The notes beneath the pieces were generated by a model. It did no database searches. It was given only the letters and a program-made list of their open reading frames with translations, and was not told where the DNA came from. The position numbers and the translations under genes are program-made. A stretch of DNA of 40,362 nt from a phage, in sequence record OZ418233.1; one strand, written 5' to 3'. This document shows, one piece after another, positions 21,388 through 29,046 of the stretch; the first letter of the stretch is position 1; every line of letters begins with the position of its first letter.

Positions 21388-21831
21388 TTATTCTTCTTCT
21401 TCATCATTAAAAAGCGGATTGTTGTTTCCATCTGATGAAAGGAAAGGTATGTGTTCTCTTGAAAATCCAACAATGACAATTTCATTATCATTTTTTGCAT
21501 AATGAATGCATTCATTAGAATGCATTCCGCCAGGGTTGAAATTTAAGTTAATGGTATAATTCTTAAATGTGTTTGGATACCATGTTGGCCCACAATGATA
21601 ATGCCAATAATTCTCTTGCTCATAATTGTCTGAGCCGGGAATTTTATCATGGTTATCATCAACCCACGAGGGCTTGTTTTTTCCAACAAGCGCCCTTCCA
21701 TTGGCAACATCCTCTAAAAACCTTTGTATGATTTTTATTTCATCATCAGTAAGGAAAGGTCCGTCTACAGCGAAAGGGGTGTTGCTTTCCCCATGTAGAA
21801 AACTATTAGATATTCTAATGTTAAACTTCAA
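21388..21831 (-). CDS. hypothetical acidic protein (147 aa), AT-rich
   Basis: TTG start with RBS CAGGAG 7 nt upstream; visibly low GC versus flanks; strongly acidic (poly-E C-terminus); clustered His/Cys (HYHCGP, NECIHY); no family recognised. Confidence 0.5.
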   Translation of the reverse strand: MKFNIRISNSFLHGESNTPFAVDGPFLTDDEIKIIQRFLEDVANGRALVGKNKPSWVDDNHDKIPGSDNYEQENYWHYHCGPTWYPNTFKNYTINLNFNPGGMHSNECIHYAKNDNEIVIVGFSREHIPFLSSDGNNNPLFNDEEEE

Positions 21832-21851
21832 GGAAAACTCCTGATGTGCTT

Positions 21852-22019
21852 CTATTTGGAGCGAAATGCCGCCTTGAAGTCGCTAAAAGATGTTCCTGTC
21901 TGGTAAACCATATCCTTGTCGCGCTCTTTGCTTGCGCGACCAAGCATAACTTTTCCAATGACATCCCAGCATTGCTTGGCTTGTTCATTGTGCTGAGTAC
22001 GATTTTTCAACGCTGTCAT
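21852..22019 (-). CDS. hypothetical small protein (55 aa)
   Basis: Not in the supplied ORF track (below 60 aa); found by reading the minus strand: ATG with strong RBS AAGGAGG, translation MTALKNRTQHNEQAKQCWDVIGKVMLGRASKERDKDMVYQTGTSFSDFKAAFRSK, stop 21 bp upstream of the 147-aa gene. Confidence 0.35.
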   Translation of the reverse strand: MTALKNRTQHNEQAKQCWDVIGKVMLGRASKERDKDMVYQTGTSFSDFKAAFRSK

Positions 22020-22031
22020 ATCGCGCCTCCT

Positions 22032-22046
22032 TTACCTTTAAGGTAA
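22032..22046. promoter_or_regulatory. operator-like motif TTACC-TTTAA-GGTAA
   Basis: Perfect copy of the shared palindrome, 13 bp upstream of the 55-aa gene start, directly after a -10-like TAATAT on the minus strand. Confidence 0.55.
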
Positions 22047-22112
22047 TATTACGCGAATCTACATCACATCGCCAATGATTATTTTAAAGGCACATCCCTG
22101 TGCCGCCGCCCG

Positions 22113-22799
22113 TCAGAAGAACCCTGCTTTGTCGTTGATGTACTCCGCGTGGGTCTGGATATCACGCAGGCATTTGCTCACACCAACGATGTAGCAGAAC
22201 ATGGTGGTCAGCTCCGCCGCCGCTCCCGATACGTCGTGCCCGTCGTCCTGTAACTGGTTCAGCAGATTCATCAGCAGTGAGTTCTCCGTCAGGCCGAGAA
22301 CACCAGACGGCGAATGAATCAGGCTACGGTAGCCGGGCTTCAGTGGGGCGCTGTAGGTTTTGTTCTCTATCTTCATTGCCTGCATCACTGCTGACGCCGT
22401 GGCGTTGGCTACCTGGTCGGCAACCATCTTTATGCGTTCTTCTTGCGGGAGCGAGTTTTTAATGTAACTTCCGGTGCGGCGGATCTGAGGAAGAACCTCA
22501 CCTGTAACCCATTTACGAAAGCGGTATGGGATAGTGCCTGGTGTCACCGCATCGCGGCAGCGGAGGATCAGTGTGTAGAGGCCTGACTCGTTGATAATAT
22601 TGGTTTCGCCTTGACGGCCTAAGTTAAATTTAGCCCTTTCATCATCATCAAGAGATTTTATTGACATAGTGGGGTTTGTCAGTTGAAGAGCTTTAATAAC
22701 GTCTTTGGCAACAAACCAAGGATTTCCATCAATAACAATGGCTCGAATGGTTGCTTCTGATTCAAAATGAAAAACAGATGGGGTTACGTTAGCAGTCAT
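22113..22799 (-). CDS. Bro-N domain protein (antirepressor-like), 228 aa
   Basis: From internal ATG with RBS AGGTGA: MTANVTPSVFHFESEATIRAIVIDGNPWFVAKDVIKALQL... is a Bro-N-type N-terminal domain; C-terminal about 65 aa is paralogous to the small protein at 23945-24217. Confidence 0.7.
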   Translation of the reverse strand: MTANVTPSVFHFESEATIRAIVIDGNPWFVAKDVIKALQLTNPTMSIKSLDDDERAKFNLGRQGETNIINESGLYTLILRCRDAVTPGTIPYRFRKWVTGEVLPQIRRTGSYIKNSLPQEERIKMVADQVANATASAVMQAMKIENKTYSAPLKPGYRSLIHSPSGVLGLTENSLLMNLLNQLQDDGHDVSGAAAELTTMFCYIVGVSKCLRDIQTHAEYINDKAGFF

Positions 22800-22952
22800 A
22801 GTGATCACCTTTGTAGTTAGGTTAATCACCACTACCGACGCCAATCGGTTGGTGGTGAACTGTGCAGGGTTGGCGTAACCGGCTACAAAGGACCCGGCGC
22901 ACCTTTCGGTGCCCCCACACAGCCCACCATAGAATAGGTGCGCTTTACACAT

Positions 22953-22971
22953 AAAAAAACCGCTTATGCGG
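22953..22971 (-). terminator. candidate terminator/attenuator in the leader upstream of the Bro-N gene
   Basis: On the minus strand: GCCGCATAAGCGG hairpin followed by TTTTTTTA; lies between the operator/promoter region (about 23060-23080) and the Bro-N start. Confidence 0.3.
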
Positions 22972-23065
22972 CATATGTGCCTCTGTAGTAATCCGGGACG
23001 CCAATCCCGGCACTGGATTTTGCCAGTGCCCGATTACTATGGCACAAGAGGAGTGCGATGTAAAT

Positions 23066-23080
23066 TTACCGTAAAGGTAA
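23066..23080. promoter_or_regulatory. operator-like motif TTACC-GTAAA-GGTAA
   Basis: Perfect palindrome; on the minus strand it follows a -35/-10-like pair (TTGATT, 18 bp, TATCAT). Confidence 0.55.
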
Positions 23081-23158
23081 TGATAAGCGCGAAGAAACAT
23101 TAAAATCAACCGTATTTGGTTGATTGCGTTTAACGCTTGATCACCTGAAAGCAAGATA

Positions 23159-23173
23159 TTACCTTTAAGGTAA
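23159..23173. promoter_or_regulatory. operator-like motif TTACC-TTTAA-GGTAA
   Basis: Perfect palindrome 20 bp upstream of the ATG of the 242-aa gene. Confidence 0.55.
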
Positions 23174-23193
23174 TGTTATTGTGAGGAAAAGCA

Positions 23194-23922
23194 ATGGAAG
23201 TTTTCTGGATAGTTGTTGGTGTGGTTGCGGTGATTATTTACGTTATCAACCAGAACAAGACTAAGATCTCTGATCGTACGGTCGTTAATCATAACAAAAC
23301 GATAAAGACCGAAGATGGGGAGATAACGATTAATCGTACACAGGTGATAGAACACACCTCTACTCAGTTTCAAAAAACTGGAGGTAATGCGCCTAATATT
23401 TCCGCACCTCCTGCTTATGATAGTGCGGTAATCCAGACATATTATAAACAGCAGGAGTTAGCAAAAGAGAGGCAACTGATTCAGCCAAAGCCGTTTACAG
23501 CTGAGATTCCACCTGGAGTGTCAACGCGTCCGGCATATCATGGAAGATTCCCTGGTGATGACATATCGTCTCAGTCATCTAAAAAAGCACCTCAGGCAAT
23601 ATCAGAGCCAGCAAGAATACCTTCTGTATCGCCGCCAAAAGAAGAATCAGCTAACAGAGTTTCAAGTGGTAGCAAGCAGTGCTTGCGATGCAGAATAAAC
23701 CTTCCATATGAAAAATTCAGGAAATCGTCAAAAAATCCAGATGGATTGACTAAATGGTGTGCAAGGTGTCTCGATGGCCCAAAGAATACACGCCATATGA
23801 AGTGGTGCCCAATTTGTAATGTCCGCAGAAAACGAACCAGCTTTTACCCTAATAATCAAAATGCGGACGGCTTAATGGCATGGTGCAAAACGTGCTGGGA
23901 TGAGCACAAAGCGAAACGATAG
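23194..23922 (+). CDS. membrane-anchored protein with two CxxC zinc-ribbon-like pairs (242 aa)
   Basis: RBS GAGGAAAA; N-terminal hydrophobic helix followed by basic residues; Pro/Ser-rich linker; C-terminal C-x2-C repeats (CLRC, CARC, CPIC, CKTC). Confidence 0.55.
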   Translation: MEVFWIVVGVVAVIIYVINQNKTKISDRTVVNHNKTIKTEDGEITINRTQVIEHTSTQFQKTGGNAPNISAPPAYDSAVIQTYYKQQELAKERQLIQPKPFTAEIPPGVSTRPAYHGRFPGDDISSQSSKKAPQAISEPARIPSVSPPKEESANRVSSGSKQCLRCRINLPYEKFRKSSKNPDGLTKWCARCLDGPKNTRHMKWCPICNVRRKRTSFYPNNQNADGLMAWCKTCWDEHKAKR

Positions 23923-23944
23923 GCCGCTCTTGCGGCCTTTAAAT

Positions 23945-24217
23945 TTACCGGGTTTGTTTTCGTAATTGTTCGGCACAATAGTCGAGATGTGTTTGCAGAT
24001 CCCGCATAGACATCTGTGAGCTGGTGACGTAGTTAATCAGTGCAGTCAGTTCGGCAAGTGGGCCATCGACATTAAATCCATCCTTATCGAGATCCCGGAG
24101 TAATTTCATCAAGTGCGATCCCTCCACCAGTGACTTGACGCCTCCCGGCGTGTGAATCCTTTCGGTAAATCCGTCTTCCAGTGGATAGTGATACTGCTGC
24201 ATCTTAATCTTCTCCAT
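23945..24217 (-). CDS. small antirepressor-like protein (Bro C-terminal-domain paralog), 85-90 aa
   Basis: About 45% identical by eye over 60 aa to the C-terminus of the Bro-N protein (…LAELT…RD[IL]QTH…); second ATG at 24202 has RBS GGAGAAG; LexA-box-like palindrome immediately upstream. Confidence 0.55.
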   Translation of the reverse strand: MEKIKMQQYHYPLEDGFTERIHTPGGVKSLVEGSHLMKLLRDLDKDGFNVDGPLAELTALINYVTSSQMSMRDLQTHLDYCAEQLRKQTR

Positions 24218-24221
24218 GCAA

Positions 24222-24243
24222 TAACTGTATATTTATACAGTAT
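24222..24243. promoter_or_regulatory. LexA (SOS) box candidate
   Basis: TAACTGTATATTTATACAGTAT contains CTGT-N8-ACAG with AT-rich spacer, one mismatch from the E. coli consensus TACTGTATATATATACAGTA as I recall it; located just upstream of the small antirepressor-like gene. Confidence 0.65.
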
Positions 24244-24279
24244 CAAATAATTTGTTTGCTATCCAGCACGTTTTGCAAA

Positions 24280-24294
24280 TTACCTAAAAGGTAA
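24280..24294. promoter_or_regulatory. operator-like motif TTACC-TAAAA-GGTAA
   Basis: Perfect palindrome in the divergent intergenic region between the small antirepressor-like gene and the tailspike gene. Confidence 0.55.
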
Positions 24295-24398
24295 TATCTA
24301 TTTATATTCACAGTATTTCTATCCATATGTGGTTTTTCAGGTAATAGAATAACCAGATATGCGGCGCAACGGGTGCTGCGACTATCTGGAGATTTAAC

Positions 24399-26588
24399 AT
24401 GACGGTCTCAACCGAAGTTGACCACAACGAATACACCGGTAACGGCGTTACGACATCATTTCCGTATACCTTCCGTATTTTCAAAAAAACCGACCTGGTT
24501 GTTCAGGTGTCTGACCTGAACGGGAACGTAACAGAATTGGTTCTGGATACCGGTTATAAGGTAACTGGAGCGGGCACTTATAGTGGCGGTGAAGTGGTTC
24601 TCCCGTCGCCGCTTGCTGCTGGCTGGCGAATTACGATAGAGCGTGTGCTTGATGTGGTGCAGGAGACTGATCTTCGCAATCAGGGAAAATTTTTCCCCGA
24701 AGTTCATGAAGATGCATTTGACTACCTGACGATGCTGATCCAGCGATGTTTTGGGTGGTTCAGACGTGCATTGATGAAACCATCTTTGCTTGCAAAATAT
24801 TACGATGCAAAGCAAAACAAAATTTCTAACCTTGCAGATCCATCATTTGAGCAGGACGCTGTAAATAATCGCTCAATGCGTAATTATGTCGATGCTGCAA
24901 TCGCCGGGGTTGTTGGTGGTTTTGGTTGGTTTATACCGTCAGGAAGCGGGGCAAGACAACGAACATTTCAAAGCAAAATGAGGGATATAATTTCTCCTTG
25001 TGATTACGAAGATAATATTTTTATGATTAAGGAGTTGATATCCAAAGGCAAAAATGCCGCTGTTTTTAACTCATATTATACTTTTGTTATTACTGTTGGC
25101 GAATGGGGTGATTACCCTACACTCAAAGATGCAATCATTGCAGCCCAGTCAATGAGACCTATGTGGGATGGTGGTAATGCTTTCTGCGAAATAAGAATTA
25201 AGACCGGGCATATTATCAACTATCAAATTGAATTCAGTTCAGGTGTTGATTTGTCTTGGATTAAAATAACATCAGAAGACTCAGTGGTTTTCTCTGATAC
25301 TCGTTTGTTTACTAAAATCGTTAGAACGTATTACGAATACAAGTATTTATTTTACATTTGCGATGCAGCAAAAAGTCCTGTATTTGCTATTCAGATCGAA
25401 GAAAATAGAGATGATAGCGATGTTTGTGCATTTATTGTAACTCAAAAAGCTGAACTTAATTTCTATCCGTATTCAGGTGCTCGAAAGTTCTACGTTGGAA
25501 TTCATGGTAGTTTTGGTGCAAAAATTAGTGCATATCATACCGGATGTGCTCCTGATGAGGAAAGTGTTGCTGCATATATGCCAGAAGGGTATTACGTATG
25601 TGATTTTTCTTATAGCAGATACTCTTCCCTGCAACTGGTAAATAATGTCAAGGCATCAATGCCTGTAAGCAAGTTTGAACGGTGCACAGAGAGTACGGTT
25701 GCGTCAGTTAATTGTATTTATAATGTTAAAGCAGATTTTCAGGGGTCAAGTGCAAGCTATTGTTATATAGGATGGAATGTAAGAGATGGTTCAAATGTTA
25801 ATATACGCGACCATAAAACTATACATTGCTCATATCGTGGATTAACCTGCATTCATACAGCATATGTTGATGCAAGACGACATGACGTTGAAGAAAGTGA
25901 TGCAGAAACAAGTGGTAAAGTCCTTGAACCAAATATTGAAAAAGGTTTTTATGGATGTGCACTTGGTGTGCGTATTGATGGTGCGGGTTGCGTTGATGTT
26001 GCTGGTAATGATATGCGCAATTGTGGAACAGCCGTTAATGCAGACACTGGTGCTGTTATTTCAGGAAAGGCTGTAGATATCTCAGGGGCTGAGCTGGGAT
26101 TTGATTGCCATGCAGGAGCATCTGTTAATTTTCCAAGGCTATGGGGTACAGATATAAAAAAATTAATGCACCTCCAAGATGGTGTAAGGTTTAACTCTAA
26201 TATTTGTCATGTATTTGGTGCAAATCCCACAAAAGATATTAGATGGATTGATGTAGAGAGATCTGAAGCTTCTTTTATGAATGCAACGCTGGATGCAGAT
26301 TCAGGATTTATTGCCGACTGTGGTAGTAGGATAACCATTGAAGGAAGTAAAGTTAAAAACCAAACAATAAGAAGTTTTTTTGGATCATATGTGGCTATAA
26401 ATAATACTGTTGCTGACAGAACTTATTCAGATATAGCCGATGTTCCGCAGTTGACTATTAGTGGAGGATCTTTTATTTCTGCTACAGGATATTCTAATTC
26501 TGACTCCAGCCCTCTGAGGTTGAGCACAACACGAAATACACTTGGCGTTGGAGGAGCCATATTTTCAACCAATGGGGAAGTTTCATGA
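24399..26588 (+). CDS. tailspike / receptor-binding depolymerase (729 aa)
   Basis: N-terminal about 130 aa resembles the conserved particle-binding module of podovirus tailspikes (from memory); the remaining body is visibly AT-rich; RBS GGAG. Confidence 0.75.
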   Translation: MTVSTEVDHNEYTGNGVTTSFPYTFRIFKKTDLVVQVSDLNGNVTELVLDTGYKVTGAGTYSGGEVVLPSPLAAGWRITIERVLDVVQETDLRNQGKFFPEVHEDAFDYLTMLIQRCFGWFRRALMKPSLLAKYYDAKQNKISNLADPSFEQDAVNNRSMRNYVDAAIAGVVGGFGWFIPSGSGARQRTFQSKMRDIISPCDYEDNIFMIKELISKGKNAAVFNSYYTFVITVGEWGDYPTLKDAIIAAQSMRPMWDGGNAFCEIRIKTGHIINYQIEFSSGVDLSWIKITSEDSVVFSDTRLFTKIVRTYYEYKYLFYICDAAKSPVFAIQIEENRDDSDVCAFIVTQKAELNFYPYSGARKFYVGIHGSFGAKISAYHTGCAPDEESVAAYMPEGYYVCDFSYSRYSSLQLVNNVKASMPVSKFERCTESTVASVNCIYNVKADFQGSSASYCYIGWNVRDGSNVNIRDHKTIHCSYRGLTCIHTAYVDARRHDVEESDAETSGKVLEPNIEKGFYGCALGVRIDGAGCVDVAGNDMRNCGTAVNADTGAVISGKAVDISGAELGFDCHAGASVNFPRLWGTDIKKLMHLQDGVRFNSNICHVFGANPTKDIRWIDVERSEASFMNATLDADSGFIADCGSRITIEGSKVKNQTIRSFFGSYVAINNTVADRTYSDIADVPQLTISGGSFISATGYSNSDSSPLRLSTTRNTLGVGGAIFSTNGEVS

Positions 26589-26881
26589 TTAAGAGCATTG
26601 ATGTCACTCCATTTCTTCACTCGCTTTGCGCTTTTGCGGCTCAGGTACTGGTTGGTATTTTTACCGGAAACTGGGCTTACGGTGCGATAGCCGGTTGTAC
26701 GTTCTTCATTGCGCGTGAACACACCCAGGCAGAATATCGCTGGATAGAAAAGTTTGGGAAAGGGAAACGTATCAACATGCCGTGGTGGGGAGGTTTTGAT
26801 CCACGCGTGTGGGATGTGGGAAGTCTGTTGGATTTTGCTGTTCCTGTTGTTTTTTGTTTTTGTGTTTATTTCTCTATTTGA
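26585..26881 (+). CDS. membrane protein, possible holin-class lysis protein (98 aa)
   Basis: ATG overlaps tailspike stop (ATGA); two or three hydrophobic helices; first gene of the lysis cassette block. Confidence 0.4.
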   Translation: MIKSIDVTPFLHSLCAFAAQVLVGIFTGNWAYGAIAGCTFFIAREHTQAEYRWIEKFGKGKRINMPWWGGFDPRVWDVGSLLDFAVPVVFCFCVYFSI

Positions 26882-27083
26882 CTGCTACCGCGCCATTAAA
26901 TGGTGCGGTATTCAACCTGCTCTTCACTGTTTGTTTCTTCAGAGTCATGTAAAAGGTGAGCTTTATTCTCGGCATGAAAAACAGGGAATTGACGATGTTA
27001 AAGTAACAAAAAACCATAAATGGTTTATTATGCGTAATGCTTTACTGTTCAGGAGGTTGTTATGCATATAAACGGTGGAAAAC

Positions 27084-27488
27084 ATGTCAGCTCAACTAAC
27101 CAGTGAAACTTTAAATCAGTGGCTTAGCATGAGTTCTCTGGCGGCGGTGATAGCAGGAGTTCCTCCTGAGGTTGCTTTGGGTGCTTTGGCTGGAGCGGTA
27201 ATTTTTGTTACCTCTGCAGTAGAGTACCCCATCCGTCGCCGGGTGCTCCTGTCGATGCTCAGCTTTCTTTGCGGCCTTCTCTTTTACAAACCAGCAGCAT
27301 CAATTCTTATCGGCATAGCCAGCCTGATCCCTACCATCACGCAGGACTCTTTTGAAAAAGGGATTGTTTTCTCTGCAGGCGCATTCGTGTCAGCAATTGT
27401 CGCTGTGCGTATTGGTATATGGCTCTATCACCGTTCCGATAATCCACGCGAGTTAATTCCGGGGAGAAAAGACGATGGTAACGCATGA
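27084..27488 (+). CDS. membrane protein, possible holin/antiholin (134 aa)
   Basis: ATG 27084 preceded by GGTGG; multiple hydrophobic helices; located before the endolysin gene. Confidence 0.4.
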   Translation: MSAQLTSETLNQWLSMSSLAAVIAGVPPEVALGALAGAVIFVTSAVEYPIRRRVLLSMLSFLCGLLFYKPAASILIGIASLIPTITQDSFEKGIVFSAGAFVSAIVAVRIGIWLYHRSDNPRELIPGRKDDGNA

Positions 27489-27783
27489 GTTTTTTTTGCT
27501 TATCACCAATGCAGTTATTTGCACTGGCATAGCAATTCGCGTTGTCACATTCCGGCGTAACGGCTCTCAACACCGAAGGTGGGGAGGATGGCTTGCTTAT
27601 TTCCTGATTGTTGCTGCGGCCAGTATTCCTGTTCGTGTCGCCTATGCAATCTGGTTACGTACGCCAATGGCTGTGGATTTATCTGAGGTCATTATCAACG
27701 CTGTCATGCTAGCTGCGGTTATTAAAACGCGCGGTAACGTCGTTCAAATTTTCAAAGTATCGAGGTCTAAACATGGAGATTAA
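27475..27783 (+). CDS. membrane protein, possible holin (102 aa)
   Basis: Overlaps previous and next genes; three hydrophobic segments; immediately upstream of endolysin. Confidence 0.45.
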
Positions 27784-28402
27784 ACAATTCCAGCGAGCTG
27801 CTGGTATCAGCGAGGCACTGGCCGCACGCTGGTTCTCGCATATAACTTCTGCGATGAAAGAGTTTGGTATCAGCAAACCAGAAGATCAGGCTATGTTTAT
27901 TGCTCAGGTCGGGCATGAGTCTGGAGGCTTCACCCGGTTGCAGGAGAATTTCAACTACAGCGTCAGCGGACTGGCTAACTTTGTTCGGGCTGGGCGTCTC
28001 ACTCAGGGACAGGCCAACGCATTGGGGCGACGTGCAGGCGAACCACCATTGCCACTTGAGCGCCAGAGAGCGATTGCCAATCTGGTGTACAGCAAACGCA
28101 TGGGGAACAATGCCCCTGGTGATGGCTGGAACTACCGTGGGCGCGGGCTTATCCAGGTTACCGGTTTGAATAACTATCGTGACTGTGGAAACGGTCTTAA
28201 GGTTGACCTGCTGGAGAGTCCTGAACTGCTGGCGCAGGACGAATACGCGGCTCGTAGCGCGGCGTGGTTCTTTGCCAGCAAAGGATGCATGAAGTATACC
28301 GGCGATATTGCACGTGTAACTCTGATTATCAATGGTGGCCGGAACGGCATCGACGACCGGCGCGCGCGATACATCAATGCCAGTAAGGTGCTGGCGGTAT
28401 GA
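27773..28402 (+). CDS. endolysin, glycoside hydrolase family 19-type lysozyme
   Basis: Motifs as I recall them for GH19 phage endolysins ([30 protein letters not shown]); followed by overlapping spanin genes. Confidence 0.8.
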
Positions 28403-28896
28403 TCTGGGCATTCGTAAAAGCATACCGGAAACAGTTGATTATCATGGCGGTGCTTGCTGTTCTGGTCATATCAGGAGTTGTTGCCTGGAATGTGCACGGC
28501 ATCCGTCAGTACGATGCCGGGTATGCGCAGGCGAAGGAAGATCAGAAACAGGCTGATGATAAGTTAAGGTCACAGCGTGAGCAGGAGAAAACACAAATTG
28601 AACGTGAAGCACAATCCCGTATCGATGCGGCGCGTGCTGATGCTGAGTATGCTAATTCCGCTGCTGACAGCATGCGCGCCGAGCTTGACAAAACCAGGCG
28701 GCTCGCCGAACACTATACCGGATCTTTCCCCCCTGGCACGCCAGCCAGCAAGGTCATCGGTGTGCTCGCCGACATGCTTGAAGAAAGCAACCGAGTTTAC
28801 AACGCAACAGCAGCTGAGGCTGAAAAGTATCGTATCGCAGGGGAATTCTGCGAGCAGCAATACGATTCACTGAAGAAGCAAAAATCGTGGCACTGA
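28399..28896 (+). CDS. i-spanin (Rz-like)
   Basis: ATG overlaps endolysin stop (ATGA); N-terminal transmembrane helix then a charged coiled-coil-like region; o-spanin ORF embedded in the +1 frame. Confidence 0.7.
28625..28873 (+). CDS. o-spanin (Rz1-like lipoprotein), embedded
   Basis: Embedded in the i-spanin gene in another frame; signal peptide with lipobox LLTAC then Pro-rich mature region; start chosen at MRRVL. Confidence 0.55.
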   Translation: MRRVLMLSMLIPLLTACAPSLTKPGGSPNTIPDLSPLARQPARSSVCSPTCLKKATEFTTQQQLRLKSIVSQGNSASSNTIH

Positions 28897-29046
28897 TTTC
28901 CGGTGACGGTATATAAAACGGTACGGTGAAAATCAGGTTACAGAAAGTTGTTACCAGTCAATTGGTTATGCGTGCCGTAAATAATTGAGTGGGAATGATT
29001 AACAGCTAACTCATAGCAAGTCATTCCTATTCAGATACTAATTTAA

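Follow-up and report, generated by a model that had tools for sequence, protein, structure and literature searches.

A mosaic Uetakevirus tailspike whose swapped beta-helix body probably recognizes the K52 and K116 capsules of Escherichia coli

Introduction

What does a temperate phage recognize on its host when the body of its only tailspike has come from elsewhere? The question is raised by the tailspike gene in sequence record OZ418233.1, a stretch of 40,362 nucleotides (nt) that we call the window. The window is the genome, in virion form, of a phiV10-like Uetakevirus, and the tailspike is the single spike of this temperate phiV10/epsilon15-like podophage. A preliminary description, made from the letters alone, placed the gene at 24399..26588, coordinates that proved exact. 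It read the product as a conserved N-terminal module that attaches to the particle, joined to a recently swapped receptor-binding body that recognizes an O-antigen or a capsule. Where did the body come from, and which of the two surface polymers is its target?

The account we favour, with somewhat better than even confidence, is that the anchor carries a swapped, composite beta-helix body that recognizes the K52/K116 capsule. The receptor is probably not an O-antigen; the distribution of the body among sequenced hosts points to the group-2 capsule K52 and its relative K116. What appears to be new is the association between body and K52/K116 among 16 carrier genomes, together with the body family itself, which has neither a solved structure nor a curated domain.

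Both capsules matter clinically. K52 has the highest estimated invasive potential in bloodstream infection and is the main capsule of multidrug-resistant clonal complex (CC) 69 (PMC13171598); K116, a type defined only recently, has been linked to invasiveness as well (PMC13171606). In a published list of E. coli K types for which phage depolymerases are known, K52 does not appear (PMC12488582), and no phage protein for K52 or K116 was found in the searchable literature. The swapping of bodies, by contrast, is familiar: the modularity of tailspikes and the exchange of their bodies between Uetake-, Lederberg- and other phages are established (PMC10408124). To these cases the present mosaic adds one whose junctions are unusually clean and whose downstream arm is conserved.

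Three junctions in the tailspike gene

Three recombination junctions delimit the mosaic. The junctions and the parts they separate are listed here by position in the window; aa stands for amino acids.

24399..26588, plus strand: tailspike gene of a phiV10-like Uetakevirus, 729 aa plus stop, ATG start.
24399..24934, plus strand: particle-binding anchor, aa 1-179, its DNA conserved among Uetakeviruses.
24934/24935: junction 1 (aa 179/180, after GFGWF), where identity to Uetakevirus DNA (ZX5, phiv142-3; 94-96%) is lost.
24935..26597, plus strand: segment replaced relative to other Uetakevirus backbones, a gap in the blastn alignment with phiv142-3.
24935..25215, plus strand: first receptor-binding part, aa 180-272, with the predicted helical cap and first rungs; apparently a divergent allele of the same family.
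24951..25007, plus strand: junction motif, aa 185-203, RQRTFQSKMRDIISPCDYE, where the Uetakevirus anchor ends and all members of the body family start.
25215/25216: junction 2 (aa 272/273, within the motif DLSWIKI), where DNA similarity to JEP4, HZ41 and 92CQ begins.
25216..26588, plus strand: predicted beta-helix body and C-terminal part, aa 273-729, the horizontally exchanged segment.
26585..26881, plus strand: small hydrophobic open reading frame (ORF), 98 aa, phrog_1443, overlapping the tailspike stop codon.
About 26844: junction 3, where similarity to JEP4 (98%) ends inside the 98-aa ORF.

The replaced segment stands out when positions 21500-29000 are compared with phiv142-3 by blastn: matches cover 23945-24934 (96%) and 26598-27891 (92%), and nothing matches between them. 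Where, then, does the intervening DNA have relatives? From 25216 to the stop codon it is 97.7-98.0% identical to the tailspike genes of phages JEP4, HZ41 and 92CQ. Five E. coli prophages share 25216..26588 at the same level, in a gene annotated 'phage head-binding domain-containing protein'. These are phages of other kinds. JEP4 is a Lederbergvirus whose spike has a P22-type head-binding N-terminus, and 92CQ is a 130-kb phage with baseplate genes. Otherwise, JEP4, HZ41 and 92CQ have no local similarity to the window upstream of the body, and the flanks in 92CQ are unrelated. An assembly artefact is a very unlikely source of the JEP4/92CQ similarity because it recurs in five independent chromosomes.

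Homologues carry the body behind several adaptors: PF09008 (P22 head-binding), PF18668 (TSP1/Gp66 N-terminal), PF12571 (tail-collar) and PF03906 (T7 fibre). With the Uetakevirus anchor, this makes at least five kinds. The recent swap of the receptor-binding domain that had been suspected is thus upheld, both by the 98% DNA identity in JEP4 and 92CQ amid unrelated flanks and by the variety of adaptors. The 92CQ gene (PV682554 59042-65939) comes last in a row of three large tail-protein genes, which lie upstream of the baseplate genes; this arrangement hints at a phage with several spikes, to which the body was added as one host-range module among others.

The stretch between junctions 1 and 2 has a different history. 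Its DNA finds no match in JEP4, 92CQ, ZX5 or phiv142-3, even at a blastn word size of 7. The protein it encodes (aa 180-272) does align with JEP4 and 92CQ from aa 185 onward, and is visibly more divergent than the remaining body; over the whole alignment, aa 185-729, protein identity is 89%. To judge from these alignments, the receptor-binding domain starts at about aa 185 and is built from two alleles of one family, because aa 180-272 are divergent while the remainder is nearly identical to JEP4 and 92CQ.

How could such a body be inserted in register? The junction motif lies where two sets of protein alignments overlap: those with JEP4, 92CQ and the homologues P0002, P0003 and P0006 begin at aa 185-188, and those with ZX5 and phiv142-3 end at aa 203. 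The family alignment (A1) has the consensus RTQHDKNxExxSPxDF at the motif, and residual DNA similarity is seen just past the 24934/24935 breakpoint. On the far side, the phrog_1443 ORF (E = 2.5e-55; no function assigned in PHROG, no Pfam match) also follows the tailspike gene in phiv142-3 (92% DNA identity) and in JEP4 (98%). It is plausible that the motif and the ORF are homology arms for cassette exchange; the ORF is probably the downstream arm because the similarity to JEP4 ends inside it. We propose that the body arrived as a cassette by homologous recombination, the motif between anchor and body serving as the upstream arm and the small ORF after the gene as the downstream one. The cassette itself would be composite, with its first ~90 residues from a divergent allele and the remainder of the type found in P22-like and large phages.

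Base composition was also examined. The first 536 nt of the gene have a GC content of 0.463, and 0.444 at third codon positions (GC3); for the body, 24935-26588, the values are 0.380 and 0.241, and the window mean is 0.492. Both parts of the body are AT-rich, with GC 0.379 and GC3 0.225 in 25216..26588 and GC 0.384 in 24935..25215. The lowest-GC stretch of 1,654 nt in the 40-kb window starts at 24961, and the GC of the body lies at z = -5.6 against stretches that do not overlap the gene. A maximum-likelihood change point computed from composition only falls at 24769, earlier than the DNA breakpoint. The preliminary description had located a break at roughly 24950 and proposed a sliding-window GC plot as a check; the break is real and lies close to that position.

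Carriers of the body, their O types and their capsule loci

Which bacteria harbour this body? We screened 5,426 complete E. coli genomes at blastn sensitivity and found it in exactly 16. Eleven of the carriers have it in a Uetakevirus prophage (at least 99.9% identity) and five in a P22-type prophage (97.7-98.0%). For three lysogens the O-antigen clusters were located through the RefSeq annotation. Strain 118UI is O15, MS 198-1 is O11 and PD23 is O83, and their bodies are 99.9-100% identical. The pattern in which one body subtype corresponds to one host O serogroup (Pas et al. 2023) is therefore not seen here.

O15 was considered as the main receptor, 118UI having been the first lysogen typed, and was set aside: an identical tailspike is present in strains of types O11 and O83, and O15 accounts for only six of the 16 carriers. 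That count is of carriers among the matches listed for the O15 wzy gene, which occurs in 100 of the 5,426 genomes; of the other ten carriers, at least eight lack O15 (two of the 100 O15 records are unlisted).

Several further observations concern the O types. The O15 cluster of 118UI (NZ_CP032515 2347514-2355876) and the O11 cluster of MS 198-1 (NZ_CP146687 2077482-2090046) belong to strains whose tailspikes are, respectively, 100% and 99.9-100% identical to that of the window. The two strains also share their K52 region-2 genes at 100% over queries of 5.2 and 4.8 kb. The pair looks like an O-antigen switch within one clone, a case that warns against reading tailspike specificity from the host O type, which for these prophages can mislead prediction. 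Both O15 alleles found have ISAs1-family transposase genes between galF and wzx. For one carrier, ECCNB12-2, typing by position gave no O type: the surroundings of its prophage (NZ_CP033635 1700001-1750000) are not colinear with K-12, and the ompF-ompA region lies about 0.55 Mb after the prophage on the yfgI side, a gene order that indicates a large rearrangement or an assembly problem.

The pattern changes with the group-2 capsule loci of the carriers. Region 2 of the kps locus, which holds the K-specific genes, is present in its 118UI form in 40 of the 5,426 genomes; ten of the 16 carriers are among them, including the O11 strain and two P22-type lysogens. The TagF-like polymerase gene of this locus also detects a diverged version (74% over 1.4 kb) in nine genomes, five of which are carriers (PD23, GN02461, GPEC1186, FORC_082 and PCP07083). 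Compared with the 118UI locus, that of PD23 has homologues of three K-specific genes, encoding an acyltransferase, a TagF-like protein and a glycosyltransferase; the other three are absent.

Gene order, protein lengths and inter-locus identities all match the 2026 capsule catalogue, and on these grounds we identify the 118UI locus as K52 and the PD23 locus as K116. The lengths that agree are those of K52_10 (829 aa), K52_12 (1248 aa), K52_13 (330 aa) and K116_7 (262 aa), and the identities between the two loci are 71.3, 47.1 and 63.11% here against 68.5, 48.4 and 63.11% as published (PMC13171606). 118UI belongs to sequence type (ST) 69, and K52 is the commonest K locus of CC69 (PMC13171598), which supports the assignment independently. 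A published listing also places K52 among the loci with rearranged kpsM/kpsT, as in 118UI. There (NZ_CP032515 3551944-3573366) the TagF-like and glycosyltransferase genes separate kpsT from kpsM, and an IS3 remnant follows kpsS. In the K116 locus of PD23, kpsM and kpsT stand in their usual order, and there are just three K-specific genes.

Together the two loci occur in 49 of the 5,426 genomes, and 15 of the 16 carriers have one or the other (K52 in ten, K116 in five), so that the carriers share one or closely related K types, as expected of a capsule-specific spike. The association is strong by Fisher's test (15/16 against 34/5,410; p = 3e-31) and holds when lineage events are counted instead of genomes (about 10 events, nine positive; p = 4e-18). 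We infer from this correlation that the swapped body tracks the K52/K116 capsules and not the O serogroup. The Uetakevirus and the P22 allele of the body are each found in both capsule types, so the feature recognized is probably common to K52 and K116. Of the two targets named in the preliminary description, the capsule is thus favoured by host distribution and the O-antigen is not, the three typed lysogens being O15, O11 and O83.

Fold of the body and its possible substrate

What sort of protein could recognize such a capsule? The body belongs to a rare family. A search with aa 170-729 against 5.8 billion proteins returned 24 homologues of 37-100% identity, and when 1.84 billion cluster representatives were scanned exhaustively with phmmer, only 16 passed E <= 1e-30 and 36 passed E <= 1e-10. 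The body has no Pfam match up to E = 1, PF13229 and PF12708 included, and the 24 homologues likewise lack a Pfam domain on the body; PF13229 is reached only by remote relatives (25-30% identity). Searched against PDB sequences, the profile built from alignment A1 matches the foreign adaptors of the homologues only, never the body.

Structure prediction was more informative. The AlphaFold2 model of the body, computed from the 24-sequence alignment, has a mean predicted local distance difference test score (pLDDT) of 93, mostly 94-98 within aa 273-729, and a predicted template-modelling score (pTM) of 0.89. It shows a short helical cap (helices at aa 206-219 and 242-250) and then about 45 short strands. 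All significant Foldseek matches in the PDB are right-handed beta-helix proteins, and a viral library agrees. From these models we are confident that the body is a right-handed parallel beta-helix, as the preliminary description had expected from runs of strand-like repeats.

The closest structure is the receptor-binding protein of Staphylococcus phage Andhra (8egr_A; E = 2.5e-14, template-modelling (TM) score 0.55). Pertactin follows and then, weakly, the P22, HK620, Sf6, CBA120 and Det7 tailspikes, alginate lyases and epimerases. The tailspikes of P22, Sf6 and HK620 are O-antigen endoglycosidases. The comparison with such O-antigen depolymerases that had been suggested as a test does yield a shared right-handed beta-helix; the fold matches to the solved P22, Sf6 and HK620 structures are weak (TM 0.17-0.34), and there is no sequence match to them. 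From the fold class we infer that the body probably has depolymerase activity.

Some relatives carry additional domains. The remote relative P0034, 831 aa long and 28% identical across the first 300 residues of the body, has a glycerophosphodiester phosphodiesterase (GDPD) domain, PF03009, at its C-terminus. In the close relatives P0015 and P0018, where identity is 47-50% along the entire body, the C-terminal domain is an SGNH esterase. The beta-helix is thus combined with different catalytic add-ons. Within the family alignment 55 columns are invariant; ten of them are Arg, Lys or His. Among the invariant residues are D284, D294, E335, R337, R362, K363, D402, R462, D463, R470, H486, R493, D538, R540 and R580.

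The capsule loci offer a hint about the substrate. Both encode a TagF-like polymerase and acyltransferases, and for this reason the capsule polymer is probably a phosphodiester-linked, O-acylated chain. For K52 this fits the structure that Hofmann and colleagues reportedly described in 1985, a galactose phosphate backbone with fructose and O-acyl groups. We propose that the spike would bind this anionic K52/K116 polymer and most likely cleave it, which would let the virion reach the outer membrane. An anionic, teichoic-acid-like substrate is consistent with the fold match to Andhra, with the GDPD and SGNH domains of relatives and with the share of Arg, Lys and His among the invariant columns. 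Wall teichoic acid is itself a phosphodiester-linked polymer. According to the Andhra paper it is the usual primary receptor of staphylococcal phages, and Andhra gp15 (8egr) is related to the phi29 gp12 pre-neck appendage. The likeness to gp15, the best structural match, has its bounds: sequence identity is 15%, no homology is detected with the single sequence or with the family profile, the host is Gram-positive and the virion architecture is different.

These observations invite a bolder reading, which we offer tentatively and with low confidence. This rare beta-helix family may be the first phage receptor-binding enzyme for TagF-type K52/K116 capsules, akin to the receptor-binding proteins of Gram-positive podophages, and may cleave or read the phosphodiester backbone that the two capsules share. 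If true, it would explain how one body serves two K types and how it has moved among three phage architectures.

Does the body cleave the capsule at all? It might instead be a non-catalytic adhesin that binds the capsule reversibly and depolymerizes nothing. The body bears no signature of Pfam or of a catalytic family and has no recognizable active site, and the separate SGNH esterase and GDPD domains on relatives suggest that the helix may be mainly a binding scaffold. Yet Asp, Glu, Arg and His are well represented among the invariant residues of the family, as expected of an active site, and a podophage with one short spike must penetrate the capsule layer. Nearly all podophage beta-helix tailspikes that have been studied are enzymes. 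We consider a pure adhesin unlikely.

Discussion

How well does the proposed recognition of K52/K116 by a swapped beta-helix stand up? Several points weigh against it. The association with hosts is a correlation, drawn from a small and partly clonal set of carriers: six of them are near-identical lysogens of ST69-like type, in which gene and K locus are 100% identical. EC332, one of the carriers, lacks both loci, and no kps genes were found in the 85 kb around the usual site (NZ_AP039429 4085001-4170000). The K52 and K116 strains could share another surface feature, for example a type of lipopolysaccharide core. The fold match to Andhra is modest (15% identity, root mean square deviation 8 Å). 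Finally, O15 is itself enriched among the carriers (6/16 against 100/5,426; p = 2e-7), and Uetakevirus and Lederbergvirus tailspikes are typically O-antigen specific (PMC10408124).

EC332 deserves a further remark. At the point where, in other strains, a DUF4942 gene is followed by kpsF, this strain carries integrases together with a type I restriction-modification system. Its capsule locus may have been lost or may lie elsewhere.

The last two points against a capsule are also the case for a classical O-antigen-specific tailspike, such as an O15 endoglycosidase, with the link to the capsule a by-product of O15 lineages. The subtype of a prophage tailspike usually tracks the serogroup of its host (PMC10408124), and one of the six O15 carriers has a prophage of the P22 type and a different O15 allele. 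Against this stands the body itself, which is 99.9-100% identical in O11 and O83 strains; and whereas O15 accounts for six of the 16 carriers among the matches listed, K52/K116 accounts for 15. We judge an O15-specific spike to be decidedly improbable. Least probable of all, and hardly credible to us, is that K52/K116 merely co-occur with the body through shared ancestry or prophage niche (lineages of extraintestinal pathogenic E. coli in phylogroups D/F, or the integration site) while the receptor is something else: the carriers are few, six are one clone and one lacks both loci, but the same body sits on two unrelated prophage backbones, in hosts from humans, pig, chicken and seawater on several continents that span two capsule types and at least three O types.

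Recognition of the K52/K116 capsule, which we continue to prefer, has partial counterparts among known phages. The tailspikes of phiV10 and epsilon15 have a homologous anchor, the same gene position and the same backbone, and likewise form a single spike. They differ in that the bodies of phiV10 (O157-specific) and epsilon15 are unrelated to this one; no O-antigen modification gene follows the tailspike gene here, and the target is probably a capsule. In JEP4 and the five E. coli prophages, a P22 head-binding domain precedes the same body (98% DNA identity). The concept is shared with CUS-3, phiv205-1 and ZX5, in which the spike of a temperate P22-like or Uetakevirus podophage is directed at a group-2 capsule. 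Those spikes belong to the endosialidase fold family and are K1-specific, in contrast to the non-endosialidase fold and probable K52/K116 specificity proposed here; ZX5 and phiv205-1 are listed as K1 type (PMC10408124). No host serotype or receptor data turned up in the literature on JEP4, HEMP4, HZ41 and the lysogen strains. A ready-made body that works on three kinds of phage anchor would be a candidate for capsule typing, for depolymerase therapy and for phage or tailocin engineering against ST69 and related strains.

The anchor and the gene neighbourhood

The anchor is conserved within the genus. Nucleotides 1-536 of the gene, and only these, match ZX5, phiv142-3 and EC.W1-9 (94-96% DNA identity). 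Several hundred E. coli prophages also share these nucleotides alone (94-99%) and have other bodies, among them GH28-related and K1-type ones. The epsilon15-like Salmonella phages VB_ST_E15 and VB_ST_SPNIS2 match nt 1-346 at 73-75%.

At the protein level the similarity reaches further, aa 1-203 aligning by blastp with the ZX5 and phiv142-3 tailspikes at 91-93% identity. More than 20 PHROG families of tail fibres and tailspikes match from aa 1 to about 166-206 only, the signature of a shared adaptor with variable bodies. A single-sequence search of the PDB matched aa 1-202, the anchor only, to the Dpo31/Dpo36 tailspikes (28lx, 8ck1; E = 2e-31); these Klebsiella phage proteins (28lx, 28mg, 8ck1) are homologous over the N-terminal 200 residues and have unrelated bodies. 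Pfam gave a single sub-threshold match on the full tailspike, to the T7 tail fibre N-terminal domain (E = 0.33). The conserved particle-binding module of the preliminary description is thus real and matches anchors of the phiV10/epsilon15 type. Its length had been underestimated: instead of about 130 aa it measures about 180 aa when DNA is compared and about 203 aa when protein is. This region, from aa 1 to about 180-203, would be the genus-conserved anchor that fixes the spike to the tail.

As a whole, the tailspike product matches PHROG 5662, 'tail fiber protein', from end to end (729/729, 1636 bits), and Escherichia phage HEMP4 covers 100% of the gene at 99.5% identity. The first 24.4 kb of the window are 97-98% identical to HEMP4, phiv142-3 and phiV10 over 84-89% of their length. 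Upstream of the tailspike gene lie the virion structural genes and then a minus-strand antirepressor block; downstream lie the small ORF, two holins, a GH19 endolysin, an Rz-like spanin and an integrase. This is the usual position of the gene in a Uetakevirus backbone, between the antirepressor block and the genes for holin, endolysin and Rz. A scan for promoters and terminators around it gave nothing interpretable, the promoters not exceeding the shuffled expectation.

One neighbouring gene is of separate interest. ORF 23194-23922 (plus strand, 242 aa, phrog_6762) encodes C-terminal zinc-ribbon repeats that resemble endonuclease VII or Lar-like proteins. It looks like an accessory gene inserted just upstream of the tailspike region, because the stretch that contains it, 23089-23944, has no counterpart in phiv142-3 or ZX5.

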